Source of the DNA: Chrysomallon squamiferum
Taxonomy: Eukaryota > Animalia > Mollusca
Direction: 5' to 3'
NCBI GenBank assembly: GCA_012295275.1
Contig: CM022665.1
Coordinates: 34,162,001-34,226,000, forward strand
DNA: 64,000 nt
The translations under genes and the position numbers were made by a program. This document shows positions 12,357 through 61,584 of this stretch, piece by piece (the stretch's first letter is position 1; each line of letters opens with the position of its first letter). The notes below the pieces were generated by a model, which made no database searches, had not been told where the DNA came from, and saw only the letters and a program-made list of their open reading frames with translations.

Positions 12357-12387
<31 letters not shown>

Positions 12388-15813: not shown

Positions 15814-15861
<48 letters not shown>

Positions 15862-16952
15862 CCCTAGCTGCTGATTTAGGTAAAACTTGTAAAATAACAT
15901 TCAAGGTTATTTTAGAATTAAAGAGTACATCTAAAAGTTACAACAGTGACAGTATAAAGCCATTAAAAATTTGTATTAATTATTCAATGTTGGTGAGAAC
16001 ATATACTTTTTAAACCTGACATTTAAAAAGAATATGTATTGTGTTTTTCAAATTATTTGTAATCCTTCCTGTGACTTTCTGGTACTTGCTAATACTACAA
16101 TGTTGTTACCATTGTGTCTCTGGACTGTCTGGTCTCTTTTCCCAGACTCTTTGATTTGGTATTGTGAAAATATCCACTTCTTTTTAATACAGTGCTGAAA
16201 AATTAGTATGAACTGAAACAACAAATTCCCGAATATTTTAAAATTAGACTGGTAGCATCATAATAAGTAAGCAGGCATTTTATTTGTTTATTTATGAAAT
16301 CTGATTATGTAAAAATGGAAGTAATAAAATCAGAATAATCAGACTGCTTGGATTATGTATTGTAATGTTTGTATCAATTTCCATACTCTGTTAAGAAATT
16401 TGATTATTATACAAGACAATTACTAATTTTGTATCTTAAACATTGAAGTGGTGAACATTTTCATTACCTAATTGTTGTGATACGAATATGTCTTTAATTT
16501 TCTTTCACGTGTGTTCATTTTATTTGCAGTTGCTTTCAAGATATATGACATTGACAAGGATGGCTACATTTCCAATGGAGAGTTGTTTCAAGTGCTCAAA
16601 ATGATGGTGGGCAACAATCTCAAAGATACACAGCTGCAGCAGATAGTTGATAAGACAATCATTCATGCAGATACTGATGGTGATGGCAAGATATCCTTTG
16701 AAGAATTTTGTGCAGTAAGTACTATTATTTCTTGGTTTTAATTTATATTATTATTATTATTAATTTTAGAGTATTTTATCATTATTTTTAGCTTCTAGGT
16801 GCAAAAAATTATTAAATCCCTCAAAATAATTTCATCAAAGTTTAAACAGAGTTGTTTTTAGCTGTTTTATACATTTAAAAGTGTGAAATTATTTAATTTT
16901 TTAGGTTGTTGGCAGTATGGATGTTCACAAGAAGATGGTTGTGGATGTGTAA
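7348..16952 (+). CDS. PPP3R1: Calcineurin subunit B (protein phosphatase 2B regulatory subunit), 170 aa, four EF-hands
   Basis: Exons 7348-7350 (ATG only), 9162-9201, 10974-11150, 11714-11773, 16530-16714 and 16905-16952 total 513 nt, all GT-AG and in phase. Translation: [43 protein letters not shown]...[13 protein letters not shown]...[13 protein letters not shown]...[30 protein letters not shown]. MGxxxS myristoylation motif present. Confidence 0.97.
9251..10660 (-). mobile_element. Full-length Tc1-family transposon with frameshifted transposase, in calcineurin B intron 2
   Basis: TIRs TACTCAAACAAAAAAGAAATGCAAAA / TTTTGCATTTCTTTTTTGGGAGAGTA, with TA TSD at 9249-9250 and 10661-10662. Transposase fragments run from 10346 ([14 protein letters not shown]...RSGRPR) through [20 protein letters not shown] and LPWPS to GGHTRY* (stop 9426-9424), split across frames. 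Confidence 0.93.
15817..15858. repeat. Poly(T) tract
   Basis: Uninterrupted run of about 40 T. Confidence 0.9.
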
Positions 16953-33245: not shown

Positions 33246-36200
33246 ATGCCTACTGCACTTGATGATTTTGAAATTCTGGAAACTATAGGGACTGGTTCTT
33301 ATGGAACCTGCAAAAAAATCAGAAGAAAGAAGGATGGAAAGGTGAACATTGATTATCAGTTTTTCATGAAGTTTGAAGTATTGCAAACAGGGATATGCAT
33401 ATTACTTGAACTTGATATTTCTAGCAGAATGCAGATTTTGAATTCTTTTGAATGAGTTGAATGTGTTTTTCCAAATAATTTATTTATTTTTATCTTTTAT
33501 CCTGTTGACAGCTCTGCTTTAAGAATTTTATTATTGGTGTTTTTAAAAATAACATAAAATGGTCTGAAACTCGACAATAATTTGAAATAATTCATACTGT
33601 AAGTATCTTACTGCAGCTTGATATGTAAAATCACTTTACAGATTTTGGTATGGAAGGAAATGGACTATGGCTTTATGACTGAGGCAGAAAAGCAGATGCT
33701 AGTATCAGAGGTAAACCTGCTGCGTGAACTACGACATCAACATATTGTACGCTATTATGACCGTATCATTGATCGCAGCAAAACTACCATTTATATCATC
33801 ATGGAGTATTGTGAAGGAGGTGACTTGGCCACTATGATTGCTAACAACAAGAAACAAGGGTAAGACATTTCTATTTTCAAGTGTGGTCCTTTAATTTCAA
33901 TCAACTTACACATTTTCTTAAAAAGAAGAATGGCAATAAATTCATTAGTTAAGGTTTATCAGAAAATATTTAAAATTATCGTTTTCTGTGTTACTAATTT
34001 AATTTTCTTGCTTGTAAACGATAACTGATGCATTTAATTTAGTTACCTTGTATTTGAAATAAAACTCAGTACTTGTGCCTGGTGAACAAAATTATTATGA
34101 TTTATTTATAAATATTTTATTTCATAGTACTCATGTCACTGAAGAATTTGCTTGGAAAATTCTCATTCAAATGACACTGGCTTTACAAGATTGTCATCGA
34201 AGGAAAAATGGGCGAGCTGTTCTCCATCGAGATCTCAAACCTGCTAATATATTTTTGGATGGTAATCAAAATGTTAAACTTGGTGACTTTGGGCTGGCCC
34301 GAGTCCTACATCATGAAACAAGCTTTGCCAACACTTATGTAGGAACACCATATTACATGTCCCCAGTAAGTGCGGTATGAAGAATTTAGTGTGAAACATT
34401 TGGACTTATTTTAGGACAATTATCAAATTAAATTTTAAGAAATGAATCCTTTACTTAATTTAATTTATTATATGAAATACTGAAAATAAAAGATAAAAAA
34501 GCTTTTTAGATGTGGTCATTGCATCCAGAACAATATTAATATTTCATTCATTTAATATAAATGTGGATGTAAAGTGCAGTGTTGTGTTACTTTACAAATT
34601 ATGAAGCTTTAAAATATCTTAATTGTTTTTACAATATAAATATTTTATAATTGTATGTTTTATGACTCTCTCCTATCCAGAATTATATGTCTTCATCCTT
34701 ATGAATAGGTAACAGAAAAATTATTTTTTAATTTTCCGTATGACATGATAAGAAAGAGATCCATTTGTTATTCAATACAGAATGGCTGCAAAGAGAGATT
34801 TCTGGCATACAAGATCAACATTAGCATATTTTTCATATTACTATTATTTTTTATCTTTAGGAACTGGTGAACAATTTGTCATACAATGAAAAGAGTGACA
34901 TCTGGTCAATGGGATGTATGTTGTATGAGCTGTGTGCACTTCATCCTCCATTCACTGCTCCAAACCAATCAGAACTAAACAGAAAGATTCGGTCTGGAGT
35001 ATTTCCTCGTCTTCCAGCACAGTACTCTGATGATCTGGATCAGATAATTCGAAAATTAATTGTAATAGAGGTGAGGCAGAAATCTTTAGTATTTTATAAC
35101 TGATCATTTTATATTAATATTTTATGTTAAAAACAACTGTGTCTAATGTATAAAATGGTTTTTTTTTTTCATTTAAAGCAAGAGTCTTTTATATTCATAA
35201 TATTTCAAAATGATTTAATTTTATATAATGTTAACAGATATCATTCTGATTATAAATCCTTTCTGTTTTAATTCCTTATATCCATGACTCTTGTTTATAT
35301 AAATTTATTGTTTTAAAATGGAGGTTCTGAAAAGGCCAAGCATTGAACAAGTACTGACTGATCCCTTGTTAGTGTTCAGGAGATTTAAAATGGAAAAACA
35401 TAATTCAGCTGATCCAGCATCTGAGAGCATGAAACTCAAACTTGAACTGGAGGAAGAATTTAGAGTCCGACAGAAAGTTCTTGATCTTCGAGAAAAAGAA
35501 TTAGAAAGTTTGTTAATTACATGTTTTGTGGAAAATTTATTTTGATATTTAATAATAATTTAAATATCCTTTAGAATGAATAAACTAATAAATTTTAAAA
35601 ATAATAATGGAATATATCTGTTTATAACATTTCAGTAGATTTTTTAATTGCTGATTTTGGATTTTTATAAAATTGTCACATTCACAGATTGGTCTTCATT
35701 TCTCAGATTGTTTTAGGTCAACAGTCGATGCTATTTCTTTGAATTAAAAAAAAATCTGATTACAAGTACTAAATGTTTTAATGGTCTGTATGTTTAGCAG
35801 TTGAAGATAATAAATATTTTTTGCTGACAGTGAAATTAAATTTGCTGTAAAATACTTGTTATTTTAAAACAGTGTTATTACATTATAAGTTTGATAATAT
35901 TTACACTTTTAAAAGTTCATTTGTCTTTAAAACATTTGTTAATTTAGGTCGTGAAAGAGCTGTAGCTTCTCGTGAAAAGGCAGTGGATGAAAAATATAAG
36001 AGGTAAATTTTTGCATTATTTTTAATCATTTTCGCATATACCACTGTTTGGTATCAGTCAGTTTCATCCACTGAAGACTGAAGCATATTTGTCTTAGGAA
36101 CAGTAGAGAAACCTGGATTTTCTGCGCAAGTCAGTATTAGAGTGTAAGAGGAAATGAAATGATGATCTTCCTATTTAGCTCTGAGCATGGTACCATTATG

Positions 36201-39200
36201 TATTTCTTATAAATATTTCTTTGCATTTTTAGTAGATAATTTCTTTAAATTTTTCTTTAAATTTGTTCTTTTTTTTTTAAATGTATTTTACACATATGTT
36301 TACTTTTGGAGTATATTAAAGTATTTTGCTGAATATTACAGAGTTGTTGAAATATGGAAACAGCTGAAGAAACGTGACTCGGCTGTTATAGATGAAAATA
36401 GAGCAAGCCCAGTATCCCCTGTACAGCTAGGTAGGAAACTGGATAGCTGGCGTGTACAGCTTGTCTCTCCTGTCCCTGCGCACTGCTGCCAATGTTTCCC
36501 CCAGTGTTAACTGTAACCCACCAGCAATTAATTTTCTGCCACATGAACGCTCACCGCTTCAGAGGCTTAATCAGATGCATAGATAGACTAGATTAGATAG
36601 TAGAATAGATTAACTCTAACGTGGCCATGCAATTGTTTGTCCCAAGTTACTGAGGTTTGAAAAAAAAAAAATTGCTTTATGAAAAAACCTAGAAAAGTAT
36701 AGAATATGAAGAATTAATTTCTTTCAGAGTGAAATGTTTTTGCCATATATAATTATCAGTTTCACAGATTTCGTTTTAAAATTTTAAAATTTTTAAATTT
36801 GGGCTTGTACAGTTTATTTAAAAAAAAAAAAAAATTATCTTGGGACAAATAATGACTTTTTCTACCTTGCTGTGTATTAATATAACATTTGTTAAGAAAT
36901 GATTTTCAGGTAATATTTGACTAGTTTTTTTAATTCATATTGTACATGTAAAGAGACTTTTCTTTTTATCTTTGCTAGACATGGTGACTTGTACCTATAC
37001 ATAGATTCATATTTGCATATATTCTATGATTTTGGACTGTCATTCATTCTTAGAAATACATATGAAACATTGAAAGAGAATAGTAAGATTCAATTATCTA
37101 TTTTAAATGTACTAAGAAAAGCAAATTATAAAATGTACTATTTGTTTCTGCAGACAGCTCACATTTTTATGCTAATTCCATTTTGACGTTATCCTCTATC
37201 TATGGTATAGAAGCCTTTGGAGGGTTATTTAAACTAAAATTACAGAAATAATGGTATAAAAATCTTAGTAAACTAATTTGGAAGGCCAGCATTAAGATAA
37301 TTCGTCTAACCCTGAAAATCTGAGATGCTTTTTGTTTTGTTTTTTGATATAAAATGAATCTGTCATAGAGATCCATGACGGTAGAAGATATGTAGGTAAA
37401 TATCAATCAGTTTTTAACAAATGTTTAATTTTTAATATAAATTTTGATGATTTTATAGTGTTAAAGTTACCTGAAATGAAATGTTTATCACATGTAATTT
37501 TTTCCTAATATTTGTAGTGTTTGACATTTTTAACAGCAGACATTTGACAAAATCTTAATTTTTTTAATCAAAATTACAGTAATTTTGAATTTTATAATTT
37601 TTTTCTTGTTCCTTTTAACTTTGTTATATCAATATGTATTTTGTTCTTTTTTGTGTATAGTGTACATTACTTACCTAACTTTTATGATGCATTTTTGATC
37701 TTTTTAATTTTGTAAATCAGAAATCAATTTCTGGCTTCTTTCTTCTGTTAACAGACAGTGTGGTTAATATCTGTTGGTATTGTACTGCCATCATTTGATT
37801 AACCTTCACCTAGTCATAGTTGGTGCGTAACTCATTATTTTCATGGATATACTCTTTAAGTGATAGCTTGTGGCTGACATTTTACATTGACAGTAAAATG
37901 GCAGATTAAGGAAAATTATTTTTTGCAACATGTCTTCCATTTCATAGTTACAAAATGTGTTATAAAATTAAACAAAATAATATAATACTAAACATACATT
38001 AGAAGTAACATTTTTAAAGAAGTTTATTTTAAAGGAAGAGCTAATGTTGACCAGACATCTAAAATTGATGAATATCCTTTTAACACATTTTAAAACATTT
38101 TATCTATTTACAAACATCTTCTACCACTCTGTGACTTTTTTAATAATTTTTATACAACTGTTGATCAGTTACCAACAGCTTCATTTTATATAACACAAAT
38201 GCAAGCTTGACCATATTTTGTTGTATCATAAGAAACTATAAATAAAAAGATTTAATAACACACTGAATTTCAGTGAATATAGATTTAACAAAACAAAGAA
38301 CAACAAAGGTTTAAATATTTTTGTATGATAGCTGAAATATTTAGAAATGTATATTTTTATAATTTTATTGTAATGTTTTGGAGTTTCTTTACTGTGGGTA
38401 GATGAAATGGAAGGGCAGGATATAAAAAATAATATAAAATTTCAAATGATTACTAATTAAAATCACAGTAAAAAGTGTAAAAATACAAATGACACAAGTT
38501 TTAATGAGTTATCCATGAAAGTAATCATAATATTTCTTTCATTTCTTACTCTTTGTCATGTTCTGTCATGTGTGCAATATACATTTGTGGATTATTTTTT
38601 AAAATGTACAATATACACTTGTACATGGTAGTGTGTACAATATACTCATCTTAGTATTTTTAGAAGATTTTCTGTCACTTTAATGAGATGACCATCTGGA
38701 ATGCTGACATGTTTAGAATGTTTATAATACTCGTATCTTTAAGAGAAAACACAAATATTTTTGATAATTTGCTTTACAATCTTTCGTGTTTAATCACGAA
38801 GTAATGTAGTATGTGCAGTCATAATGTTTGTAGATAATCATATTTTTCATAACAAAAACAGATAAAATATTTTGGTGCAGTTCCTTCAGAAATTTGCCAG
38901 CTGAAGAGTAATATATAATTGGTTTTATTTAGTTTTTATCTTTTTTAAAGTGGAAATTTGAAGGTAATGCAGATTCAATCATTTTTACATAGTTATTACC
39001 TTCATTGTGCTGTTTTGTATCAAAAATCTTGGGTTTCATGTTGGATTATCACACTGGCAACCAGGTGTTGCATCACACATTAAATTCTGACATAAAAAAA
39101 AAATCTTGCCTCCTGATAATTACATACAGATTTTTAGGATCACTGAAAATGTGTGAAAAACTCATGACTACATTTATTCAGAAAACATACGAAATGAGAA

Positions 39201-41352
39201 GATTGTTTGCAGTCCATTTCATTTTTGTAAACTATTTTTATGTATGACATATCCATTCATAATTTTCACCTTGTCATTACATTTTTGGCATGTTCTCTTT
39301 TTATAGTTAATATAACAATATACAAATTGATTGTTTTTCAGACATGGATGATTTTGACCACCCAATGATTTTTCAGTGTTGTTCAAGTTCACTTAGTTGT
39401 ATTGTAAAAATTGTTTTTCAAATGTAGATGATTTTGACTACACAGTAATTTTTCAATTTTGTTCAAGTTTATTTAGTTATATTATATTTACAATCTTCAG
39501 GTTATAAAAAACAAAGGAAAAACATTGCTTTGTTTGTTCATAGTTTTAGAAGTTTGATTATGCCATTCAGTATTATTATTTGAATGTTTCATGAATGAAA
39601 TGTTATCTTTCAGCCCAGGTAAGGATGCACATTTTTCTTACATTTTGTTTGTTTTTTAAATTTGATTCAATTTCATTGATGACTGGGATTTTGCCTTTTC
39701 ATTAAATTTATCATTTATAATGTGTAAGTAATTGTATTTGTATCTTTCACCAAACATTTGTAATAGACTAGACAGGTGGTTTTTTTAAAACATTGCATCA
39801 TAATGCCAGTATCTTGAAACCATTTTAAATACTATGCTAACACAGGTTTACTATAATACAATTTTGCTGCAAATTCTACATAAAATACCAGCTTGTTGTA
39901 AACTGCAATTACCAGTTACAAACACCATGAAAATATTAGTTCATTAACACACTGTACAAATATCAGTTTGTTACAAACATCACGCAAATATCAGTGTTAC
40001 AAACATTACGCAAATACCAGTTTGTTACAAACATTACGCAAATACCAATTTGTTACAAATACTACACAAATAATAAATAGTATTATAAAGTATTATAATA
40101 TTCTTTTATGAATGGTTGAGAATTTTTTTTTTAACAAAGGAATATAAAAAGTCTGATAATATTGAAAATATTTGGTATTAACTTATAAAATGGTAACAAA
40201 ATGGCCTAAGAATGCTTCATTTTTAAATTTGCAGATTTTACAGCATATTCTCAGTATTTCTATTATTTGGTTATTAAAAGCAGTTGTACACTACAAGATG
40301 TACATGCAAAATTGAATGTTTGGTGAAAGCATGATTTTGTGAAAAATAAAAAAGTTGCAAGTTTTGGCAATGTTTGTTTTGCTTTGAATGAAATATTTAA
40401 AGTAATTTTAAAATATCTGTTAATACCTGTAATTTTATTAAAGCATTTAAATGCAATATATTATTATTATTATTATTATTAAAAAATTTAAGTGCTAAAG
40501 TGATACTTTCCAGTAATTTTTTATTCAGTTGAAAAGAAATTAAAAAAAAAACAACAACCAAAAAACCCAATATAAAGAACTAAAGCAAACAAGATAACTT
40601 ACAAGATATGCTTCCTAATAAAAAATTCTTCAATGACATAAATATTCTTGTAATTTATTAACTCTGAACCCACCGTCCTGTCCCCCTCCCCACCAAAAAA
40701 TTCTTCATGGCGCAAAGGTATTCTGTTACAGACAGTTATAGAAATATGAAAGTTATTAATGATGGCAAATGTCTGTATACCTCTGTAGGTTCAGCAGAGA
40801 CCTTTAACATTAAAAAAAACATTCTTATTAAACAATAAAATGTAATAATGCTTTCCATTGTTGTCATTCTCTTACTGTGTATCAGTATATGAATTTACTT
40901 CTAGCATTTTTATTAAGTATTATTTTTTATCTGCTTATGATTGTAAGCTGCTTCTGCATTTCACTAAATACATTGCCTTTTTTAACTTGAGAAAAGTTCT
41001 GGATTCAAAACCAGTTAATTCACTGTAAACTGTTCAATAATAAAAAAATTGTTTTTCAGAGTCACCACCACCTTGTTTGTCTTGGGCTGACAGAGAAACA
41101 GACTCTCCTAAAAAACGAGTTTCATTTGACATTAATGGAAAAGAAAACCTACGTACCAAGTCTAGGTATACTGATCATAAACCAGTGCAATACCAGCATT
41201 TTAATGATGATTTGTACACAAGAGAGTTAGCCAGGAGACAAGAACTCAAAGACAGACTGTTTGAAGTGAAGACAAAAGCTTTAGAATATCATGGTCTTGA
41301 TTTGAGAGCAAAGTATAAATATAAAAATGGTGGAATCCTAAATTTTAGATGA
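33246..41352 (+). CDS. NEK2: NIMA-related Ser/Thr kinase Nek2, Nek2A-type, 460 aa from the conserved Met
   Basis: Exons 33246-33341, 33642-33859, 34128-34365, 34861-35070, 35324-35507, 35948-36002, 36342-36430 and 41060-41352 total 1383 nt, in phase. Kinase motifs IGTGSYG, LVWKE, LVSEVNLLRELRH, HRDLKPAN, DFG, GTPYYMSPE, KSDIWS. Then a coiled coil, KRVSF, a KEN box and a terminal FR dipeptide. Confidence 0.95.
39331..39490. repeat. Two diverged 80-bp tandem copies in NEK2 intron 7
   Basis: TTGTTTTTCA...GATGATTTTGAC...TGTTCAAGTT..TTAGTT begins at both 39331 and 39411. Confidence 0.75.
39955..40073. repeat. Minisatellite of about 28 bp, at least 4 copies
   Basis: Unit approximately TTTGTTACAAACATTACGCAAATACCAG, head-to-tail without spacers. 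More degenerate copies lie upstream, from about 39880. Confidence 0.8.
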
Positions 41353-41795
41353 GGATCATGATGTGATCAAAAAGTGTATTTTCCAGTTGGACGAGTTAGA
41401 AATATTCAAAAAATGGCACAGATTAAGAACTGATATCTGATCAATAACATTTGCTGTTGGATCTCATCTAATCAAACAAGTTTTGATATAAATATTTTAA
41501 GATTCAGTTATCATTTTTTATATAATCAAAACAAGATAAAATTGGACATGATTCTAATTAAAAGACCAAGTTGACTTTGAGACTGAAGTATGAACATCAA
41601 GTTAAAGAAAAATGCTTTACAATAACTAGGACTATGAATATATGTGCTACATATTTTATGACATTTTGGTTTTCATTTGTATGAGAATGTTTTTGATAAT
41701 GTTCTATTAAAATCATCTAGTGTTTTTAAAAAAGTATGTGAGCATTTTAAATTTTAATTCAAATTGAGTTACATTTCAAACTGTAAATATATATT

Positions 41796-41827
<32 letters not shown>

Positions 41828-43347
41828 TTAAAATAGTAATGCAAGGAACTACAATAAACCACATCTATTAACTGCCTGACAGGGTAACAAAGAAAATTAT
41901 AATTAACAATTAACAATTAAATGCCTACTAATTATATCTGACATCAGAGTTAATGCTTAGTATCAAAAACGCTGATTTAAAACTGTAATAAGTTAAAAAG
42001 ATATGTTTTTATTAGATGAATTACACAATCATAAAAATCTTCAAACCTATACCCACATTTATTTCACAAGACATTCCAGTTACTGCCAAAACATCCCAGT
42101 GTATTTGTAAAATGTATTTTTTTTATTTGTTCAAGTAACAATAAATGCAAAGGGCTCATAAATAAACAGTATTGTTCATTTCATATTAATTTAGAAAATA
42201 AGTAAGATACACTTGTCATGTTTTTGTATTCAGTTTCTATCCTTAAATGTTACATTATGTAAATAACTGAAACCAGTAACGGATAATTTCTCTATCATTT
42301 TATATGTTTTGTTTATTTGTTTGCTGTTATGTATTTTTTGTTAATATATCACCACTATCATGTATAAAATTTAAAGAATTTAAACTAATTAAAATTATTT
42401 TCACTATGTTTATTCAATTTTCAGAATAAGCATAGAGAAAAAGACCATTTTGTTTTGGTAAGATGAATTATATATATACATATATATTGGTTAAGTTTGT
42501 TCACAATAAAGGATTTACTAAAATTGTTGGTTTTTTTTTTTGTTTCCTAAGGCTTTACTGAAAATACTTGTACAGCTACTCACTATTCTTTTCTATCTGA
42601 TTAAATCACTGTTATATTTTACATAGGACAAAAGATGACACTGTATTTGTTTTTAAATAATAATTTTTCATCAGCAAAAATAAAATCTTACTAAATGAAG
42701 AGTGGGAAGATGCAAATAATTTATGTTAACGTCACATCATTGTTTAGGAGGATGAGTTGACAAAAATTTTACTTTTGTGAATATATGCTTTACATTTAAG
42801 ATGTGTTGATGTTCTTTATTTCTAATTATTTTCAATTAATGGATTTAATAACCTCAGAGCAAAATGTGTGTATGTCTATACCTATGTTATGTGATTTTTG
42901 TTGGGATTCTGAATTTTTTTTTGTAAAACAACCAAAACCAAAGACAAATATCAACACAAAAGAAAAGAAATCTTAATGGCATTATTGTTTTAGCCACGAG
43001 AAAAAGGTAAATGTTTTAAGTAACAGAGATCAGAATATTCTGCAGATATAATTACAGATTTTTCTCAAGTAATATTACTTGTGCATATGCATATTTATTA
43101 GTAATGTAACCAACCAGTCTCTGATATTAACTCCACTCTTAACTGGGATTGAATCTAAATTGATGTATATAGAAAAAATAACACAAAAAAAATAATTATA
43201 TGAAATATCACTTTAATTGTATTTGTTTTTCTTTAAATTCTAAGACAGGCATTGACTGCTAAGGTACAGAATACGGATATTTTTTTCTTTCTGCAACTGT
43301 TTATAATACCATCTATATATCCTATAAACATGCACATTTTAATGTTA

Positions 43348-43533
43348 TTACCAGGCTTTTTCTCCTGGGGCCAAATGACGTCCACCATATAATTTGCTTT
43401 TGTTTCTGAATGATGAATAATGACGGTCATCATTGTGAAGCTGGATTGCCCTTCCCACAAATACTAATCCAAATGGGATAACAATACCAATGTAGTACTT
43501 CATGAAACGTGGTTGCAACATGCTGAAACCCAT
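43348..43533 (-). CDS. NDUFB1: NADH:ubiquinone oxidoreductase subunit B1 (MNLL), 61 aa
   Basis: Acceptor TTTTCAG ends at 43541 and the ATG is in strong context (GAAGATGG). MGFSMLQPRFMKYYIGIVIPFGLVFVGRAIQLHNDDRHYSSFRNKSKLYGGRHLAPGEKAW has one TM helix followed by the MNLL-family FRNKS.L...L.P.E..W signature. Confidence 0.85.
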   Translation of the reverse strand: MGFSMLQPRFMKYYIGIVIPFGLVFVGRAIQLHNDDRHYSSFRNKSKLYGGRHLAPGEKAW

Positions 43534-43758
43534 CTTCAATCTGAAAATAAACAATAAGAAAAAGAGAATATCTGTAAAATAAAAATAAGTAATAATTTGT
43601 TTTCCTTAGTTCTTCATTATTATGTCGAGTTATTTGATCTTGGTTTTATTAAACATTAAAATAAATATAATTAAAAATAATTATTCAGGACATTAACATG
43701 AAATGTTATTTTGTTTCTCTATATTTTTATTTTTTAAAAATAAACTACATGTGTACCT

Positions 43759-43914
43759 TTAATTGACTGCTTTTTCAAGCTGCAACTGTGCTTTGTACTT
43801 TTTGGTGTGTGAGTAGTCTGAATAGATCAAAAATCCTACAATGCTAGGAAACAGGACTGAAAGAAAGTTGCGACGGACTTGGTAGATTATCCTTGTCAGC
43901 GATGAATTAAACAT
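43759..43914 (-). CDS. Putative 51-aa single-transmembrane microprotein in the exon upstream of NDUFB1
   Basis: MFNSSLTRIIYQVRRNFLSVLFPSIVGFLIYSDYSHTKKYKAQLQLEKAVN* occupies 156 of the 166 nt of an exon bounded by TTTTTTCAG (exon start 43922) and AG|GTACAC (exon end 43757). Confidence 0.7.
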   Translation of the reverse strand: MFNSSLTRIIYQVRRNFLSVLFPSIVGFLIYSDYSHTKKYKAQLQLEKAVN

Positions 43915-44211
43915 CTAAAAATCTGAAAAAACAAACAACATAAACGTTTCTTTTCCAAATAAAATACTGAGCAGTTTAATTAATGGTTTTCACTTTCGAA
44001 GGTATTTACTCTAGACAAGCGAGTAATCTTTGTTAATACAATTTACGAATAACTGAAAAAACTGAAATTGTGGTATTTGTGTTATACATAATATTTATAG
44101 AATCATTTAAAGCAGGGTATAACTATTCCAAGATCTTCAATATTTAATAAAATGTAACCTCTCACACATTTAGGGTAAGTCTCTCACTTTTATAACATAT
44201 ATACATACATA

Positions 44212-44437
44212 CAGGGGTGTGCAAAAGTAGGTGTACAGTTATGAAAAAAGAAAACACAGTACTCATTGCATTTATTATTCAAACAAAAAAGCTAATATAA
44301 AAATACATGCATTTTTATTAATTTAAATAAAATATGGTTAATGACACTCAAAATAAGAAAAATGAGTCCAACTAATTTAATTTGCTACTAAATTCACTGA
44401 TGTGATACTACTGTATACCTTCTTTTGCACCCCTCTG
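44212..44437. mobile_element. Tc1/mariner-derived MITE
   Basis: TIRs of about 28 bp: CAGGGGTGTGCAAAAGTAGGTGTACAGT versus the reverse complement of the right end, CAGAGGGGTGCAAAAGAAGGTATACAGT. TA TSD at 44210-44211 and 44438-44439. Confidence 0.85.
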
Positions 44438-44999
44438 TATATGTTTGTATTTTAGAGCTGAATAGCATTTTATACTGATTATGCAGAGTTTTCTGTACTC
44501 TTTACCTGCTAATAGTTGCCCATAATCAATATACCAATTTGCTGATGCTACTGATAACTGACTTACTTACTTTAACACTACACTCGCCTGCATTTTTGAT
44601 GCTGAACAGTCCCCCATTTTAATAACATAATCAGCAACAATTCTTCTCCCACTGTTCATAACACTGAATTTTTTATTACAGTTTATTATCAAACTCTCTC
44701 TTTTATGAAGGAACTGTTTTGGAAGTTTGTTTGCACTGAAAACATATGGATAAGACTACCCCTGATCACTTGTGTGGACTACACACCAGAGGAAAACAGC
44801 GTGCCAAATGGAACCTATTTACTGGTGTAAATACATAGGAGAAATTAATGTCAGTCAGGTGACACAAAGTTGAGTGATGGTAACAACTGGTTTGCTTTCA
44901 TTAATTAGCATATTTTGGTTTCATAGCTGATATTCTGGTTGGTGAACTCTGATAAAGAGACAGGTAATGTTACATTGTCATTCCCATGGTCAGTGACCA

Positions 45000-46520
45000 A
45001 GAATCATTGCACCATGTAGTGATTCACTGAGCTAGCTATAGTGGGAGTCTGTAATCATCCTGTGTAGCAATATTCTACTGAAAAGGTCAGTGCCTTCAAA
45101 TAATTATACAGCTGATGGCATTATCAAAACTATTGGTAAATTTCAAAACACCTGTAGGCAATGGAAACACATGTTCCTTCATGTTCCAATCCTGTAGCAG
45201 ATGTGCCATGGATAGACTACCAGAAAATGGTGCCTGTCAAGAAGGTTGTTCTTAAAACATGGGCCTGATTTACTGTCTCTGTGGACAAATGGCAGTGTCA
45301 CAGACAAAGGAGAAACTGAAGTCTGATGGAGTTCTGGCAGTCAGCTTGTACAAGCTGTGTGCATTCACAAAGTATATATACACACAAAGTGAAAAAATTA
45401 TATTTTGTACCATTTCGCAATACCTTAGTGCAATATCTGATGTTTTCAACAGAGTACCTGAAGTGGAGCTAGGAAATTCTGTTCAGTGCATGAAGTTGAT
45501 AGCTGTGGACTTCCCATTTGATGAATGTGCTGTGACTCGGGAATGCTCAAGTGGTTCAACATGCAGCTGTGCTGGCATGGTATCTTGCGAGATGTACTTA
45601 TGAAAAATTTTAAGAATTTAAGTAAATTTCAGCACACTAATTTAAAATGAAAAATTCTGCCATGTTCTCAGAAGAGGCCAAAACATGGAAACAGCAGTCA
45701 TGTATAGTTTGAAAATCATATGATTTGTAACATAAGACCCAATATTACTAATTTGATTCATAAACCAGGAAAAATGTGCTTTTGAATGGTCTCTGTAATG
45801 CTGAATCTGTTTCATCAGGTTTCATTAAGTATTAATATGTGCACTGAAAGAACCAATCTTTTCAACAGAATATGTCTACACAGGGTATAGCACAATTTCA
45901 CACTCCCATTACAGTCAAGTGAATCGTTACCTGGCAGTGTGGCTCCTAGCTAACTGATCAAACTGGGTCCAGGTGGTTAAAACTTTCAAGATTTGTATAT
46001 TTTACAGACAGAGCTTGTGTTATGTTTGAAGATGCACTTTTTTTGTTAATAAATATGCCCATCTACTGCCACTCCACTAAACCAACTGCAGGAACTTCAG
46101 AAAGTATCATCTGCTTGACACTGGAAATATCTCTAAATATGTGTGGACTGAGTATACTATCAAACTTGATGATAAAGATGAAGTGTACCAGACAGAAAGG
46201 ATTTGGGGGTCATCTTTGGGGCATGTAAGCTTGATGGGGCTGAATACAGATTAAGAGAACATGCCGAGGTTGCCACACTTGTTCTGATCATCCTGCACTT
46301 CAATGCTGGACAGGATAGAGTCTTCAACATTATCAGAAAGAACAAGACAAACTTTAGGAATGATTTGTCATTGGATGGCACTTTAACATCGTTGATCACC
46401 ATTAAATAGCCAATCTAGAATCACAAACACCCTGCTAGTGCTATAAATGGTAGTCAACTAAATAACTTTAAAAAAAGCAAAAGTATCACTATGGATTACA
46501 ATAAACTATATAAGAAGTAA
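45000..46520 (+). mobile_element. Highly decayed hAT-like transposase remnant (boundaries approximate)
   Basis: ORF 46203-46409 reads EVATLVLIILHFNAGQDRVFNIIRKNKTNFRNDLSLDGTLTSLITIK, resembling the hAT dimerization motif (L.LPHSNA..ERVFS...KNKT..R..L). Upstream DNA is less AT-rich and contains broken ORFs. Confidence 0.55.
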
Positions 46521-46951
46521 ATGCCATTTCATCATCTAAAGTAAGTATATTACTATATATAAACTGCTCCCTTTTTTTTTTTTTTTTTTTTTTTTCATGT
46601 TTAAAAACTTCCCTAGACCTCAACCTCGGCCTTTTATTTTTCTCACTCATTAGAATTGTCACATAGATAAATAACCGTATCATTATCACGGTAGACAATG
46701 TATGTTTGGTGCTAGATCATAAACTGAATTCTGAAAATTATCTGGTAAGATTTTGCATAAAAATGATACATGACTTCGAGTGTTTCACTGTTTCAGTGTT
46801 TGTCATTCGACTCTTTGTCACTACGGACACTAGCCATTACTGAAAGACATAAACTGTCATTATGCATAAACAAAACATTTCTTTGAAAATTTTGTTTGTT
46901 TTTGAATATATTCTTTTAAAACCAAAAACAAAAGAAAAAGAAATTACTAAC

Positions 46952-47140
46952 TTTATCCAAAAAGATTAAAAGATATGCATCTGCTTGATCAAGGTCGGAA
47001 ACTGAACAGACTGGTGTTCGTTTCTCTATTATTGATAGCTCATCAGCTATAAACTGAAGCGAAGTAACTCCAAAGACGTTCAGTCTACGCAACAAAACGT
47101 CGCGACACCTGGCGATTATAGTGATAACGTCGTATATAAG
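46952..47140. promoter_or_regulatory. Candidate bidirectional promoter with divergent non-coding first exons
   Basis: CpG-enriched patch. A minus-strand donor (AAA|GTTAGT at 46951) points toward NDUFB1 and a plus-strand donor (AAG|GTGAGT at 47141) points rightward. Confidence 0.4.
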
Positions 47141-50100
47141 GTGAGTGATCTTTAGTGCTGGTAATTAAAAATATTTACATATAACTTGAATAGAGATTGA
47201 TAATTATTTTGATTATCGTTATAGAATATACTTTATCAAAATACATTCAAATAAATTTCTTTCAATTTTGGGTATATCATATGTTATTGCAAGTAACTCT
47301 GGTATTTCACAAATTTTCAGTTAACTGGGTTTATATTAATGTCAAAATGACAAAACACAGTTTGTATTCGTTAATCATATCACAACTGAGATTTAACCAA
47401 ACAGTTCATGATTTATAGAATATAATAAGTAAACAATTATATACTTTAACAGTTACGCATTCACGGCATTGTCACGTGTACACACAGTACGGTTAGTGAT
47501 TGAACGGATTCATTGATTCAATGATTGACATTGACAAATTACATTTTTTTTTTTTATGGTAATTAATTTCAACGCATGCTCATTTTAATCACATGATCTG
47601 CTTGAACAGTATTATTCAAGATGCTTCAGAAATCAAACTTTCAAATATTTATGACTTTAGTAGTAATTTACTTGTAGATAATTAACAAAAATAACATAAT
47701 TCAATATTCATTAATCTTATTCCGCATTATAATTTCAGTTTATTATGCATGCATTTACACAAAAATAATCCAGTTTGAAAAGTTTGATTACGTTGAAAAA
47801 GTAGTTAGAAAAGGCGTGTGACATCATGGTTTGGTAATATGAACGACCATCCTTACCTTTATCAGTGTAAATCATAAAAGGTTCTGAAAAATGAACGCAA
47901 AATAATATAATTTGGAAGTTTAAATATTTCCGTGAGCTCACGGAAATGTCCGATCGAAATCCAACATGGCAGCATCGAACGCCGATTAGTGTTTACAAAC
48001 GTTTAAATACGTATGCCTTCATAATGCAATCAATTCTACATGTATTATTAAAAGTAATTTGGGTAAATATGTCGTTTACTCAATGCCTCGTATACATAGA
48101 TGTCTGTTATTGAGTAGAAATTGCTGCAAAGGTCGAAACCTTTTTTTTTTTTTTAGGTAACTTCGCCGTCATAGCTCATACCATCTCGTACACGTTTCGT
48201 ACTGTGTATTTTTTTCAGATATTATTACGAAAAAATAAAATAATAGTAAAATAAAATAAATAATTTTCACAGACACTGGAATTTGAAGATGACTATTCTC
48301 ATTAGGTACCATAATGTGGACACGTTATTCTGCTAAAACTCAATAGCAGACAGTTCTGAGTACGAAGTTCTAAAACGATACTTGAAACCATTATAATTCT
48401 TTTTTATATATATTTATTTCCATTTTCAAAGCACTAGAGGTCGTATTTACATGTAAAAAGCAAACTGATCACGTGTTATTTGAATGATTGCCTTGATACA
48501 TTCATTATAACGCTTGAACCAGTTTTACAACAGAAAATGTTTTGAAAAAGTTAAAGGTCCGTCAACCGGCCTTATAATTTTTTTTTATTAAAAATAAAAT
48601 GTTCACTCTTTTTCGTTAAAACAAAAAGTATTCAACTTCTAAAACATGTACTATTAAATGTGCATACAATGAGTTTGCTATTTTTATTTAAAAAAAAAAT
48701 CATTGGTCCATGCTAATAATAATACCTTTCTATTATTTATTTCGTTTTTGTTATTTCATTGCATTTTTAAAAATATATATATTTATTAATCAATTTAATG
48801 TTATTTAAAGTCATTTTAGATAATTATTGCTATTAAAAAGTGTATTCTGAAACTTTATAAATTCCATATATTCATAATGAGCTAGAGAAGCACCTATGTG
48901 TGCAAAGTACTAATAAGGCCTTACATTTTTTTTCTATATTCATATTGTATTGAGCATTAAATATCTATGTATATTTTTATTAAAGTAATATCAAATATAT
49001 TATGTTCTTTGTTCAAATATGCATTGCTTTTTTGTTTATGCTGTTTATTTTTAATTTTTGTTTAAAAAAAAAATGTGATTACATCTGCAGTAAATTTTAC
49101 ACACACACCCACACACATGGAATAACTGGACATTGTTGTAACATAAAAGCTTTAACCTGAGAAGATTAAATAATGACACCGTTTTATATATATATGTATA
49201 TGTATGTATGTATGTACGTATATATGTATGTAACAAGTCATTTATCAAGTAAATATAATATGAAGCTTTATTTTTGGTCAGTGCCTGAAAACACAGTAAA
49301 TTATCTAATCATATCTTGCTACTGCTTACAGTGATTGCAGGTTATATATATATATATATAGTCACCAGCTTGTAAGTTGATTATGACCTAAATCAGACGT
49401 CTGTATTTATAGAATCCATATTGTATGTATAACATCTCAGTATTAAGTCATACATTATGCATATAATTTAGTTTTAGTTAACCCTTTAATTAGTCAAATC
49501 AAACCCAATTTGCACTACTACGCATTTAGTACTTACTATAAAAAAAAACCCAACAATAGCAAATATTTATTGATCACTGCTGCTGGGTAGAGGACAAAGA
49601 TACTGTTGCCTTGGGTAGCTGAAGGAGTCATTTTCTTTACAAATATTCTGAGCTTTATTTCCATTCCTGTTCAGTCTTGCAGTAAAGATGAAAAATATCT
49701 TGCATTAGATAAGTCTGAACTTGGCTTCAGCTGCAGCATGACTCTCAGACATGAAGTTGTAAAGTTTAACAGTTGTAAGTCTATGACTATGCATATGCTG
49801 TCTTGATTAGGTCAGTGGTCTACTTTGTATGAACTGACCATTGATTTTAGCTTATACTAAGCTCAAAAGGTCACAAAATAGTCAATTTTTGTTACAGGTT
49901 TAAATGTCAAAATATAAACATTTCATATATAAATAATCATCTATTTTGTCCTGATTAAATCCCACACTGTTAGTGAAAACTAATTTTGCACAAGATAATT
50001 TAAAAAGGTTTATAAACAGGTGCAGTAAATTCATTATTTATACTACAAACTACTAACATTAAAAATAGGGCATGGAACTAAGAAATTGTTGCAGTAACTG

Positions 50101-50794
50101 AGCATAATTATTCAGCAGTAATGTTTGTTCCATATTTCACCAAAAACATTCACTGAATATAGAGTAATTATTATGTTTGCCTTCCATCAGCTTTAATATA
50201 TATCAATACTGACAGCAACAGAGGAGGTATGGTATGTATTTTCATTTCATTAAGTACTTTTCTTTTTAGGCTGTATGTTTTATTTCAAGCATTTTTGTCT
50301 TGGATGTAATATTTGGAAATGTTGTATTTATTTTTAATTATTTAATTATTAAATGACAATGATCTCTGCAATATTTATTTTGAAAAAGTTGTAAAAGTAA
50401 ATGAAGTAGGGATAGTGCTCATTTAGAAGAGGAAGAAAACAAGTTTTTTGCTATGTTAGTCAGTTCTATATATCTGTATTATCTTCCTGTTTGCTTTCAC
50501 TGGCTGTGGTGCTTCTGTCTTTCATACAACTGCAGATTGGCTACTTTACACATAGTGGTGAAAAAGTTCAGTACATTGTAAAAGAAATACTGACAATACT
50601 TGGTTTATTTAATCTGAAGAGACTAAAGCATTGAAATCTGGAAGCCAAATGTCTTGATAAGGTGGTATTTTTACAATAGCTAATTTTACTTAGTTTACAG
50701 ATGATAAATGCAGCTCAGATGGACAATTGCAGATCTGTGACAAACTTCACTTTCTGTTACAGATGTTGGAAACTTGTGACATTTGATATCTGCA

Positions 50795-51241
50795 ATGTCA
50801 CTTAGTTCAGTGGAAGGTTTAGCACATTTGTGCTTTCTGGAGGATGGATCTTGTTTCCATGGCATTTTGATTTCAACAACTGGTGATCAGTACACCTTGT
50901 TAGGTAAGCATGCAGATGAAGATGTCTGTCTAGACAAACACGAGTGCTGCTTTGAGGAGGATTCATTAATGATGGAATTAATAGTCATTAATCACAGCAA
51001 TTTTGATGAGGAATATTTTATTCCTGGTGTTATGAAATCTGGAGGAGATAACTGTACACTGATATCAGAACATATTAAATTCTACACAGATCAACTTCTT
51101 GTGGGTCAAAAAGCTGAAAATTGTATTCAGAAATACTTTTCGAAAAAGCTCTTAGGTCAAGAATGCTTAATCTGTATTGGAAAAATGGAAATTCATTATA
51201 TAGCTCCATCTCTGCAGAGTAATCACAAGAAATCTCCATAA
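50795..51241 (+). CDS. Uncharacterized 148-aa Cys-rich, acidic protein in a single coding exon; family not recognised
   Basis: 447-nt uninterrupted ORF from the first ATG, in very AT-rich surroundings. Acceptor-like sites at 50700 and 50762; AATAAA at 51373-51378. Confidence 0.45.
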   Translation: MSLSSVEGLAHLCFLEDGSCFHGILISTTGDQYTLLGKHADEDVCLDKHECCFEEDSLMMELIVINHSNFDEEYFIPGVMKSGGDNCTLISEHIKFYTDQLLVGQKAENCIQKYFSKKLLGQECLICIGKMEIHYIAPSLQSNHKKSP

Positions 51242-55148: not shown

Positions 55149-58100
55149 ATGGAGGAGGATATGAAAAAGAGACTGTCGGGTAGTCCACTGCATGACTACA
55201 TCGCTGGAGCGTTAGGAGGTATATCTCTTTCTATTAGTCAGAGAATGCGCTAAATCAGAGAACATGCATGTTTTAGCATTAGGAAAAAGAGAGACAATTT
55301 TGTCATTAATAGAGAACATTTTGCTCGTGTAATCGTGTATTATGAAGGTGGTGGAATGGGTTAAAAAAAAAGAAGGTTAAAACGGTACCGGATTGAATTT
55401 ATGATGAAAACAGATACTTGGATATCAGCAAATTGTCGAACCTAGGTAAATCGCAACCATTTCAAAAATAACCTAAATGAATAATAATTATTTTGTTTGT
55501 GTGGATACATCTGCTTATTTTCCAGCAATTCCTAGATTCACCTTAGTAATTTCTGATTTTTTTTGACGTTGATGGTAAAGCTGCTAATTCAAAAAAAAAA
55601 AAAAAAATAAATAAATAAAAAATTAAAGCTTCAAAAAAAGGTTCTATATCAACAGTTACTTCTTATCCAAAATCGTCTCTCAGTTTTCAGTTCTTGTCAT
55701 ATTTTCATATACGGATTGTTTCTCTACAAGGGTGATTAAGTAAAAGGTGCATCAGTATTTCAGCTTTTATTTATATTTTTAAAGATTATAAATAAAAGGT
55801 TAAATACATTTATTTCAAATGTTTATTAATCGGGTTGATTACCCCAAGAATCCGACCAGAAAGTGTTCTATTTTCACTAGGAGAAGTCCCGTTGGACGGG
55901 AATTCGATCCTGCTGCCTTTTGATCACCTAATTTGGTGAGTACGTTAGACGATCTTTCTTTTACAGATTTCACAGTGCACGCTTAGAACTTTGCGGTTGT
56001 TGTTATCTTACTTTACTGAATACAAAATACAACTGCAAACTGCAATGTGACTTCATCGTTTGGATTTCCTTGTGTAACTTTGTTCCTGAATGGATTTTCA
56101 AAATTAAGAAAGTAAAATAACTCATTTAAAATACTAAATTTAATAGATTTATTGTATTATTCATCAAGTATAAATGACAGTATTTTTGTGTTAAGGTGGT
56201 GCAGGAATTCTTATTGGACACCCCTTTGATACTGTGAAAGTAAGTAGAATGTGTTCCGTAACATTTTTCAAAGACATTTTAAACTAAGAATGGGTTCTTC
56301 TCGTGTTAAATATAAAATTGTTGCCACCTTTTAATTAATATATTTTGCCTATTTTTGATGATTCTATCCCATCTTGTCGAAGTCATAAATAAATCACTCA
56401 TCCCATTCACGGTACCCTCAAATAAGACAATGGACTAGGCCACATGGTCGAGTGTCGTCCCATCCAATCAAATCCCATGTACCGGCCACAGAGGAACAAC
56501 AAAACAAGTTGAATTTGCGTATTTGTGTATTTAATATTCAAGCACTATATTCAGGGATACTGTGTTCAGATACACTATCATCATCCTAGTTACGAAGTTC
56601 AAGTTTCACGAGGTGTCCAACTGCATCGAGGTACTGGAGAGGTGTCTTGGCTCCAGCCTGCAACTGTCTCTTGAGACGTCCTAGCCGGTTGTCACATTCC
56701 CTGTACATTCGCTTCCTGGGTGGAGCTGCACCTGAATTATTTTGTCCCGCTCTGCCTTCTCGATTCCTTGGATGAGGTCTACAAACTTGTAGATGTTGGG
56801 GTGCTGGTGGGGTAGAGCTCTGTTGAGCCTTGAATGGAACCCTTCCAAGTTGTTGTTTGTCCTGGGTCCTGTGGTGGCAGAGTGGTTCCACAAGAGAACA
56901 GGAAAGCGGGAGTCATCGTCCACCCAGTTTGTCACCGTGTAATCGTTCATCTCGACTGCTCTTGGCTTCCAATCAGGCACCCTGGACCTCAGCAATCGGA
57001 AGCAGTGGCAGTGCTGCAGCTCGTCGGATCCACGTCTGCACGTCTGGGTCGTTCTTGTGCAGGATGGCTAGTCCGAGGTCAGCGGTCTTGCGCCACACAG
57101 CCTGGCAGAAGTGGAAGAAGCAGCCTTTCAGCACAGCACGTGGAAAAACCTGCTCAAGAGCCCGGATGGAAGCCATCTCGAAGTCCGTTTGGCATACGGG
57201 GACCAAACAATCCATGCACAATGTACACTTGGTCCCACAAACCAGGGCAAGAGGAGAAACGTCCATGTAGATCGTCTCGGCCGCCTGTAGATTTCTTACC
57301 TGATCATCGGTTGAGAATACCACCATTTTGTCAGCATCTCCATCCGTGAACAAGAGGAAGCGCTTCCCATCTTTGTTTGTGTCCAGGGTCCTTGTAGGTC
57401 CAGTTCTTCTCTGGAGGCTGGGAGGACGGGGATGGTGGTTTTACGATAACGGTACAAGGCGCTCTTCACACTGTGGAAGGTAGGCAAGACGGGAACGCGG
57501 GCAATCTCATCGTTGTAGATCTGTTGCATGGTTGCATCGCTTGCGGATGGTGCTCATGAAACGAATGGCAGTCTCGTTATCGGGTGGGTGATCGTGCCCA
57601 AAGGAATTGCGAACATAGTCGCCAACAGTGGTAACTTTCCCCTTGCATGGCCTGTCAACGCACCTCCAGTAAACACTGTCAGCATTCGATCGGTTCTTAC
57701 TGTACAGATACCCATCAAGTAAGACCTATGGTTGACCACGAGCAGACTGGACGTATTCCACTTTCCTCAGACCCGCCATACTGATAACTATAGGTACCGT
57801 CTTGATCACAGCCTTCTAACCCAGTTTGAGACAATTCTACTAATTTGCGAATAAGAAGTGTTGACTACTAATTTGCTTTCATGAGTAGGATTCACCGCAA
57901 TGGATTAATAAACAAAACAAACCAGAGAAGACTGGCTAAACAAAACACTGTAAGGCAAGGGAGGATTCACCAATTTGAAAAACAATTAAACATGACACGG
58001 GATGCAATTGAAAATGTTAAACAAGCTAATGAAGATTTGATCAACAGGCTAAAGAAAACAATGTGAAACAAAGGAAGATTAACCAATTTTCCAAAAAAAG

Positions 58101-59327: not shown

Positions 59328-61584
59328 TAATTTTTAATATTGTATGCTGGATATGGTATTATGAGAGCTCATTATATTAAACTGCTTTAACTCGATTTAA
59401 TTGGCTTAATGTCTTACTATATATTTATTTATTTATTTTAATTAATTTATTTTTTAGTATTATTAAAAAAAATATATATATAATAATAATAAATAAAAAT
59501 ATTTTAATTTCTGCTTTTTATGTCATACCTGCTGTCGCTTGTCTGGTGTATTTTAAACATATTTTACTTTGTTCTTTAACTTCAGTTAAATGATATATTA
59601 TTGTATGCCATGCTTATACCTCGGAGATGGGAATTTGCACTCATAAAAGAATACAAATGCAGTTTGTTTTTTTACTTGAAAGAAAGTAAGCGATGCATGG
59701 ATAGGTTTGCCTTCTGTCAAACCGTTTGTAAACTCAATTTAAAAAAAATAATAAAATAAAAACTATAAAAGATAAAAAAAAAAATTCATAGTTTTATTTA
59801 TGATCGATTGATTGATTTTGTTGTGAGGATAATTGCTGGGTGTTGTTTATTAAAAGTTCTAATAATTTAACTCGTGTGTGTTTGTATTAACATTGTTATA
59901 AGACCAATTTTCAAAACTCACATTAAAAAATTATTTTGAAATATGAGTTTAAGGCAACAAGAACGCAGTAAATAAAATTAAATATTCGACTTAGTCTAAA
60001 ATAATAATGTCTTCATCTGCAAACATTAAAATCGATCGTGGTGGGGGAAGAAAAGGAACATATTTGTAGCGAGAAATTAGTGTTGAAAGACGTACAACTT
60101 TGTTAATACAGTGTCCGTGTTGAAATATTTATTATATTAGAATTATGTAAAGGGTTTCTAGTCATAACAATTATTCTGTGATAAAGGTTAGAGCATTTTT
60201 CACAAATATTCATTGAATCACAGCATTCTTCTTATATCAAACGTATTTTTAATTTAGAAAAGAAAGAAAAAGAAAAAAAAAGAAGAAGAAAACCTATATT
60301 ATATGAACATTAATACTAAAGAGTTAAGCGAGGAAGAAGACAACAAAATAATTGTGGTATCCTTAATTTCTTTTTTTACCTGTGTTCTACACAGATGCGA
60401 GGTACTTTCCGAGGAATGTCATGGCCTCTCTTATCATATGGTATTGTCAATGCGGTCTTCTTTGGTGTGTATGGAAATAGTCTAAAGCTTTTGCAGTGGG
60501 TGAGAAAAGATGAAGATCGCATTTCGAATATGGATATTTTCCTTTCTGGATGCTTGGCAGGGGCCGCCTCAGTCATGTTTGGCTGTCCCATTGACCTCTT
60601 TAAGGTCGTTCTTCAGTCCCAGATCCCACACGAGATTACTTCATCCGGTAAGACGGGTTAAGCAATACGCATGTCTTCCGTATGTTGCCAGTTAGAGGCA
60701 AATACAATCGTTCAGATGGCTAATTCAGGATATTTTATTAATTATTAATTAATTTTTTTTTTTTTTTTTTTTTTCCATCATTTCGCCTACTTTCTTTCAT
60801 ATTAAAATATGGAGTATATCCCCCAACCCTTTGTATACTAGCATGTTTTACTTACGATCCAACAGTGATATTAAGAAAAAAATAAGTAAAATAAAACATT
60901 TTAAAAAGTAAAGAAATCGGGAAAGTTACACCTGTAACATGAAAATAACGATCAAATAATTTAATATAAAAACATGAAAACAAAAAAACCCACCTTAACA
61001 ATGCAAATTATATTCACCTTCAGTTTCAACTTAATTATAATAACAATATATTCTTTGTTAAAAGAAACGCTGAATGATAACTTCTTATTTGATTGTTTAT
61101 TTTCACAGGTGGGCATGTAACATATCGTGTTGGAAAATTCTATAAAGGACCCTGGGAATGTGCAGTGGACCTGTTTAGAAAGAATGGAATTAGAGGTTGG
61201 TACAAAGGCTTGGTCGCAATGCTCTATCGCGATGTGCCATCATTTGGTCTATACTGTTCTGTGTATGAGTATCTCAGTAGCCAGATGCACAGATACCAAT
61301 GGACAGATTCAAGAGGAATTACTTCAAGTATTGTAGCGGGAGGTTGTGCGGGTATTTCCGCATGGGTCGTAGTAATGCCCCTTGATTTCGTTAAAAGTCG
61401 TCTGCAGTCAGACGTTCAAGGAAAATACAAAGGCATCATAGACTGTTTTAAAAAGAGCGCTGAAAGCGAAGGAATTCGTGTTTTATTCAGGGGAACTCTA
61501 ATAACGTGTCTGAGAGCATTTCCAGTAAACGCAACAACATTTTTAGTTTACTCACAAACTCTACAGTATCTCTCCTACCTTTAG
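55149..61584 (+). CDS. SLC25A45: Mitochondrial carrier of the SLC25A45/SLC25A48/SLC25A29 group, 307 aa
   Basis: Exons 55149-55218, 56196-56239, 58715-58795, 60395-60647 and 61109-61584 total 924 nt, in phase. Three carrier signatures: PFDTVKVQLQ, PIDLFKVVLQ, PLDFVKSRLQ. Also FRGMSWPL...VNAVFFGVY, RDVPSFGLY and RAFPVNATTF. The family is secure; the exact orthologue is not. Confidence 0.85.
56360..58338 (-). mobile_element. Mutator-like (MULE) transposon with frameshifted transposase, in carrier-gene intron 2
   Basis: Ends GATTCTATCCCATCTTGTCGAA / TTCGGCAAGATGGGACAACACC. 9-bp TSD with one mismatch: ATTTTTGAT at 56351-56359 and ATTTTTGAA at 58339-58347. MULE motifs DFEMASIRALEQVFP...GCFFHFCQAVWRK and RTNNNLEGFHSRLN are spread over several frames (about 57779-56586). 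Confidence 0.9.
58512..58575. repeat. (CA)n(CT)n microsatellite
   Basis: Read directly. Confidence 0.85.

Follow-up and report, generated by a model that had tools for sequence, protein, structure and literature searches.

The closest described counterpart of the locus considered here is found in Drosophila, where, according to PMC4528329, FlyBase R6 marks the gene for the complex I subunit NDUFB1 (CG18624, ND-MNLL) as dicistronic. Its partner on the shared transcripts, CG45089, is given in File S1 of PMC4528330 as an ORF of 54 aa with 21 nt between its stop codon and the NDUFB1 start. In the account of PMC4528330, FlyBase calls the two gene products 'unrelated', CG45089 is annotated only on dicistronic transcripts, and splice forms carrying NDUFB1 alone also exist in the fly; due to the existence of these forms, a strict coupling of the two products is not obligatory. 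The same ORF had been reported in 2008 by Hayden and Bosco (PMC2276209), who describe a 54-aa uORF of transcript FBtr0071140 (Ka/Ks 0.11) that accompanies NDUFB1 in flies, mosquitoes, silkworm, locust and two ticks; they assign it to the conserved-peptide uORFs (CPuORFs) and consider that it might be regulatory. A second system of similar architecture is the sloth1/sloth2 pair (viz. SMIM4/UQCC5 and C12orf73/Brawnin), for which leaky scanning was demonstrated by reporter and where translation of sloth1 reduces the output of sloth2 (PMC9681215). In this pair, as described in the same work, the spacer is 5 nt long, the members are proposed to be paralogues, and both are assembly factors that act on complex III.

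In the window (the whole stretch of 64,000 nucleotides of Chrysomallon squamiferum DNA that was analysed), a locus of the former kind is present on the minus strand. Its features, listed in the order of transcription, are as follows, where X4 is one of the sequencing runs considered below.

46952..46981, minus strand: 3' end of exon 1, non-coding, to the extent covered by the X4 contig (30 nt)
43923..46951, minus strand: intron 1, 3029 nt, GT..AG, as defined by the X4 contig
43757..43922, minus strand: exon 2, 166 nt, made up of an 8-nt leader, the 51-aa ORF and 2 nt (contig records 1 and 8)
43759..43914, minus strand: ORF1, the 51-aa microprotein, almost certainly orthologous to Drosophila CG45089, with its start in a weak context (T at -3)
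43541..43756, minus strand: intron 2, 216 nt, GT..AG, separating the two cistrons; joint found in 4 of 4 runs
43257..43540, minus strand: exon 3 to the extent covered by the X4 contig, i.e. 7 nt, the NDUFB1 CDS and the 3' UTR
43348..43533, minus strand: ORF2, NDUFB1 (MNLL), 61 aa, with its start in a strong context (A at -3, G at +4)

A preliminary description of this DNA had proposed that the apparent 5' UTR exon of NDUFB1 is almost entirely an ORF of 51 aa, which ends 2 nt before a splice donor and is joined by splicing to NDUFB1, and this was borne out in its sequence, its stop position (ORF 43914-43759) and its splicing. The junction between exons 2 and 3 (43757-43540, minus strand) that it had put forward is present in all four RNA or sequence runs examined, which come from 3 studies (X1, X4, X5 and X7 of the eight listed; X1 and X4 are recorded as RNA, X5 is presumed to be RNA and X7 is of unrecorded kind) and whose contigs give no strand, expression level or transcript ends. 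Further, a single contig of 480 nt from run X4 (record 8) extends without any mismatch through exon 1, the peptide exon, the NDUFB1 exon and the 3' UTR, and it adds an upstream exon which the preliminary description had overlooked; the 3' end of this exon is at 46952, and its joint to exon 2 (43922/46952) is seen in one of the four runs, viz. X4. The stop codon of the peptide lies 2 nt ahead of the GT donor at 43756 and the acceptor lies 7 nt ahead of the NDUFB1 ATG at 43533, and the spliced spacer between the two cistrons is 9 nt long and in frame. The start of the peptide (ttttagATGt) is in a weak context and that of NDUFB1 (ttgaagATGg) in a strong one, and between the two starts no frame contains an ATG; in these respects as well the earlier reading agrees with the sequence.

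Some other features of the leader may also be recorded. A uORF of 4 codons starts in exon 1 at position 46980 (46966-46980, minus strand), with a pyrimidine at -3 and inside the part covered by RNA, and a second uORF of 4 codons, likewise with a pyrimidine at -3, lies near exon 1 at about 47029-47043 (minus strand), outside the covered RNA. A second TAG is found immediately 5' of the peptide ATG both in the window (43914-43922) and in one of the related loci described below (L002, 250-257). If this TAG served as acceptor in the window, AAA from exon 1 would be placed before the ATG and the weak context would become strong; no use of it as an acceptor was seen in the RNA contigs. In the contig from run X1 (record 1), exon 2 is preceded by 42 nt that are unmatched within 42700-48700, unlike the 30 nt of the X4 contig at 46981-46952, and these 42 nt may stem from an alternative first exon, from a different allele or from a limit of the tool.

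The identity of the downstream cistron is clear, as ORF2 passes the Pfam family PF08040 (28.4 bits against a gathering cut-off of 27) and matches the solved NDUFB1 chains in the PDB with an E value of 8e-4, or 6e-7 using a profile made from an alignment of 12 NDUFB1 sequences (A4), in which the C-terminal NKS-x-L-x-G segment is invariant. NDUFB1 is a one-helix member of the ND4 subassembly of complex I and is required for assembly, as described in PMC8762328.

For the upstream cistron, a word-indexed search among proteins, started from the peptide alone, returned no candidates, and the homologues emerged when HMMER was run over all 1.84 billion representative proteins, which gave 22 matches at E<=1e-3 (best 8e-9); a profile search raised the family to 49 matches. 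In an alignment of 53 peptide sequences (A2), from which 7 longer matches were excluded, the residues P23, Y31, D33, T37 and K41 are invariant in 53/53 members, an invariance that is partly an effect of how matches were selected. The motif P-x6-IY-x-D-x3-T-x3-K is likewise present in every member of this alignment, within upstream ORFs of about 45-65 aa; the conserved part is this internal helix motif, and the C-terminal tail and the length are variable. No convincing Pfam match was among those listed for any member of A2, and this is an invertebrate family lacking a Pfam entry; a match to Sipho_tail (E 0.09) was dismissed as due to chance. The family members with species names come from Diaphorina citri and from a bryozoan, Bugula neritina, and no vertebrate homologue is present among the few named matches. 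The nearest cluster in the Atlas is an unnamed eukaryote family of 51 aa, for which the phylum recorded most often is Nematoda (4 records).

The peptide published for the fly shares all five of these invariant residues at the same spacing, based on an unscored comparison by eye with the published sequence. As in CG45089/ND-MNLL, an upstream ORF with this motif, under purifying selection, is placed on the same mRNA directly before NDUFB1 and separated from it by a short spacer; the spacer is 9 nt in the window and 21 nt in the fly, both in frame, and an intron lies between the cistrons in the window, the comparison with the fly covering cistron order and spacer length. Based on the motif together with the synteny, the peptide of the window is almost certainly orthologous to CG45089. 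The pairing is hence already known and the window is a further instance of a known locus; the view in the preliminary description that the pairing was unrecognised does not hold, as it is the FlyBase pair CG45089/ND-MNLL, in print since 2008. In the literature searched, viz. papers outside the subscription journals, no main text names CG45089 or FBgn0266490 and no function of fly CG45089 was found, and searches for prior reports of a bicistronic NDUFB1 or a dicistronic ND-MNLL, molluscs and annelids included, gave only unrelated papers or none. CG45089 is also absent from the supplements of PMC9977279 and PMC9346487; since ND-MNLL is absent there too, these supplements are not full protein lists. 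The peptide seems uncharacterised. The present analysis adds a bryozoan homologue, together with a start-codon signature described below and mixed hints of NDUFB1 paralogy, the latter two of which were not met in the literature searched. As judged by the Bugula sequence, the peptide occurs outside arthropods, and its linkage to NDUFB1 probably extends outside them as well.

Thirty related loci were recovered from metagenome contigs, and their start codons and splice sites were predicted from sequence. NDUFB1 is present downstream on the same strand, at a distance of 323-2515 nt, in 12 of these; among the 18 loci lacking it, 13 have <1100 nt after the peptide stop and 3 have >2 kb. The loci share the layout of the window, viz. 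an acceptor, 3-8 nt, the peptide ORF, a few nucleotides and a donor, followed by an acceptor, 1-8 nt and NDUFB1. With the window included, the predicted spliced spacers measure 5-14 nt in 12 of 13 pairs, all without an ATG (the exception, L021, is without a clear donor). For the peptide ORF the median dN/dS was 0.24 (Nei-Gojobori; 199 usable of 300 pairs) with no pair >=1, and for NDUFB1 it was 0.28 (23 usable of 66 pairs); these values reflect the related loci, as synonymous sites are at or close to saturation when the window is compared with its relatives. The upstream ORF is shown to be under purifying selection in relatives. However, as 21 of 25 distinct peptide sequences fall into one cluster, the counts represent about 5 independent lineages.

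The two starts are marked by a contrasting signature. T is present at -3 in all 25 distinct peptide starts, compared with 514 of 1610 for any ATG; the start of ORF1 in these loci was taken to be the Met that most closely precedes the RRN motif, a choice which may inflate this pattern. A is present at -3 in all 12 measured NDUFB1 starts. Both AUGs adjoin splice acceptors, which may themselves shape the base at -3. Further, an internal Met is found in none of 1241 codons of the peptide ORFs versus 20 of 745 in NDUFB1 (in the A2 core, there are 2 Met among 1802 residues), and out-of-frame ATGs are depleted in the peptide ORFs (6 observed, 19.2 expected from synonymous shuffles) whereas in NDUFB1 27 are observed and 15.7 expected; one locus (L001) was excluded from these ATG counts. 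Depletion of ATGs together with a weak and then a strong start is the pattern expected where ribosomes scan through the first ORF. In such a mechanism, some ribosomes would initiate at the weak first AUG and the rest would cross the AUG-free ORF to the strong AUG of NDUFB1, so that leaky scanning would set the ratio of the peptide to NDUFB1. That both products are made in a fixed ratio by this means is, from the sequence signature, very probable. The resemblance to sloth1/sloth2 is evident in that two small one-helix proteins are encoded per mRNA, with a weak start followed by a strong one, no AUG between them and a very short spacer. However, the sequence family is a different one (PF15114, at 0.83-0.86 in the Atlas, is a lead and nothing further), and, as PMC9681215 describes the sloth proteins, both are assembly factors of complex III, whereas in the window the downstream cistron encodes a structural subunit of complex I. 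Of the earlier proposal of a bicistronic mRNA translated by leaky scanning, the shared spliced mRNA, the conserved ORF, the sequence signature and the predicted helix stand, but the novelty of the pairing does not.

The peptide is predicted to be a protein with one membrane helix. An AlphaFold2 model (pLDDT 87.9) has helices at residues 3-15 and 17-50, a hydrophobic stretch is found at about residues 17-31 (best 19-residue hydropathy 1.36), and both flanks of this stretch are basic family-wide, with median net charges of +3 and +4. A Foldseek search with the model gave 0 matches, its comparison by VIA-align returned generic long helices only (best Z 5.4), and a PDB search with the single peptide sequence gave chance matches only.

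The evidence bearing on the suggestion in the preliminary description that the peptide arose by an ancient duplication of NDUFB1 is mixed. In its favor, the family profile had only two matches in the PDB among 177,635 sequences and both are mammalian NDUFB1; the likeness is to the NDUFB1 N-terminal helix and runs ungapped over 26-28 residues, at weak E values of 1.4 and 2.9. In the Atlas, two divergent members have NDUFB1 clusters as their closest named family (0.90/0.89 and 0.92/0.92, with the next family at 0.85-0.86), although no more than 4 of the 10 top named matches share the family; the remaining neighbours are, we presume, small mitochondrial membrane proteins. Against it, an HHalign comparison of A2 with A4 gave a probability of 0.4% and the cross-HMM scores between the peptide family and NDUFB1 were equal to those of shuffles. 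PF08040 had no match for the window peptide and matched 3 of 53 members weakly (best E 0.02), whereas UcrQ was weakly matched by 11 of 53 (best E 0.025); thus ORF1 falls below the Pfam cut-off for NDUFB1, and it is without the C-terminal NKS-x-L-x-G segment. Taking these results together, descent of the peptide from NDUFB1 by tandem duplication is slightly favored.

The preliminary description further suggested that the peptide could be an unrecognised subunit or assembly factor of complex I. In two cryo-EM studies of fly complex I (PMC10036122, PMC9977279), the enzyme is described with 43 subunits, all having mammalian counterparts and none unique, and the family profile matched no fly chain in the PDB, in which the fly NDUFB1 chains, as positive control, were found. 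With no extra subunit in the fly structures, the peptide is probably not a stable subunit, at least in flies. A modelled complex of NDUFB1 and the peptide, made without alignments, had a score of 0.00 and weighs neither way. A permanent additional subunit of invertebrates, lost in purification or absent only in flies, could be argued from the linkage to NDUFB1 and the weak likeness to it, and also because fly NDUFA3, as the structural reports relate (PMC10036122/PMC9977279), was overlooked by bioinformatics until the structure; however, with two independent structures and no matching fly chain, we consider it quite improbable. In view of this, and as NDUFB1 is a part of the ND4 subassembly that is needed for assembly, a role as assembly helper is the reading that we prefer. 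The peptide is probably stable and destined for the mitochondrial inner membrane. It would act transiently while the NDUFB1 part of complex I is built, serving the ND4-containing module as a chaperone or placeholder that resembles NDUFB1, and would be absent from the mature enzyme. This last step is a guess, to which we give an even chance.

The same properties could also belong to a stable mitochondrial membrane protein acting outside complex I, e.g. an accessory of complex III, complex IV or ATP synthase, with the mRNA being shared for co-regulation only. The weak matches of UcrQ to members of the family (11 of 53; best E 0.025), and the ATP synthase j, COX6C, UQCC5 and MITRAC7 clusters at 0.83-0.86 in the Atlas, are consistent with this. 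However, NDUFB1 outranks these families in both Atlas queries and is the sole match in the PDB, and the linkage is retained in several distant lineages, in contrast to polycistronic layouts generally, which are said in a fly smORF survey to be rarely conserved; an explanation of this kind is a possible but unlikely one. A conserved-peptide uORF acting in cis, whose translation or stalling tunes the output of NDUFB1 and whose peptide, once released, has no further function, would agree with the class to which Hayden and Bosco assigned it (PMC2276209), with the lowering of sloth2 by translation of sloth1 reported in PMC9681215, and with the annotation of the fly gene only on dicistronic transcripts. 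Peptides that cause stalling generally do so close to their C-terminal codons, whereas in this family the conservation is in the internal helix motif and the C-terminal tail and length vary; as the predicted shape and charge also fit a membrane protein, this explanation is improbable. Lastly, the in-frame spacers of the window (9 nt) and the fly (21 nt) could be taken to mean that the ORF arose by chance within a 5' UTR, or that it forms the first part of a protein fused to NDUFB1 by read-through. However, the conservation of the family and the dN/dS values argue against the former, and the measured spacers are out of frame in 10 of 12 pairs, which rules out a conserved fusion, so that a read-through protein was rejected. 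No longer or fused forms were found among 7996 candidates, which is weak evidence, and one gene call (P0007, from another contig) is a fusion of peptide and NDUFB1 made by the gene caller. Any explanation of this kind is extremely unlikely.

Several observations concern the surroundings of the locus. Within 36000-48600, CpG is depleted over a kinase gene and intron 1 (observed/expected mostly <0.5) but is near or >1 at 46800-48600, a pattern which fits methylation of the gene bodies and a promoter at exon 1 that is free of it; the bin containing the peptide exon is a local exception at 1.0. The kinase gene (PF00069, NEK-like, presumably NEK2) occupies 33603-41349 on the plus strand, and its probable last exon is about 1.9 kb from the 3' UTR of NDUFB1, tail to tail. 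Other genes in the window include a GST-N-domain gene at 4600-7080 (minus strand), which we take to be EF1-gamma-like, an EF-hand gene at 10934-16740 (plus strand), which we take to be calcineurin B-like, and a mitochondrial carrier (PF00153) at 60320-61581 (plus strand). Coding-like, CpG-depleted ORFs of 71 and 153 aa at 49591-51238 (plus strand), the latter without a Pfam match, may belong to a divergently transcribed gene. Decayed transposon-like stretches and a multi-copy repeat are found at 45000-46450, 47700-48600, 9600-10360, 21900-24350 and 56400-57770. In the RNA runs, numerous divergent contigs map to the repeat at 47700-48600.

A gene of this kind is easily missed by annotation, as it has no Pfam family, few of its homologues carry names and gene callers fuse it to its neighbours. 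The full account that we would tentatively offer, which we hold to be less probable than its separate parts, is that an ancient tandem paralogue of NDUFB1 may have become a placeholder for invertebrate complex I, carried on the NDUFB1 mRNA across protostomes in a ratio set by leaky scanning. As polycistronic layouts are, according to the fly smORF survey (10.1101/2022.04.24.489283), seldom conserved in distant species, the retention of this layout with the same start-codon logic in distant lineages suggests a functional coupling of the peptide and NDUFB1.
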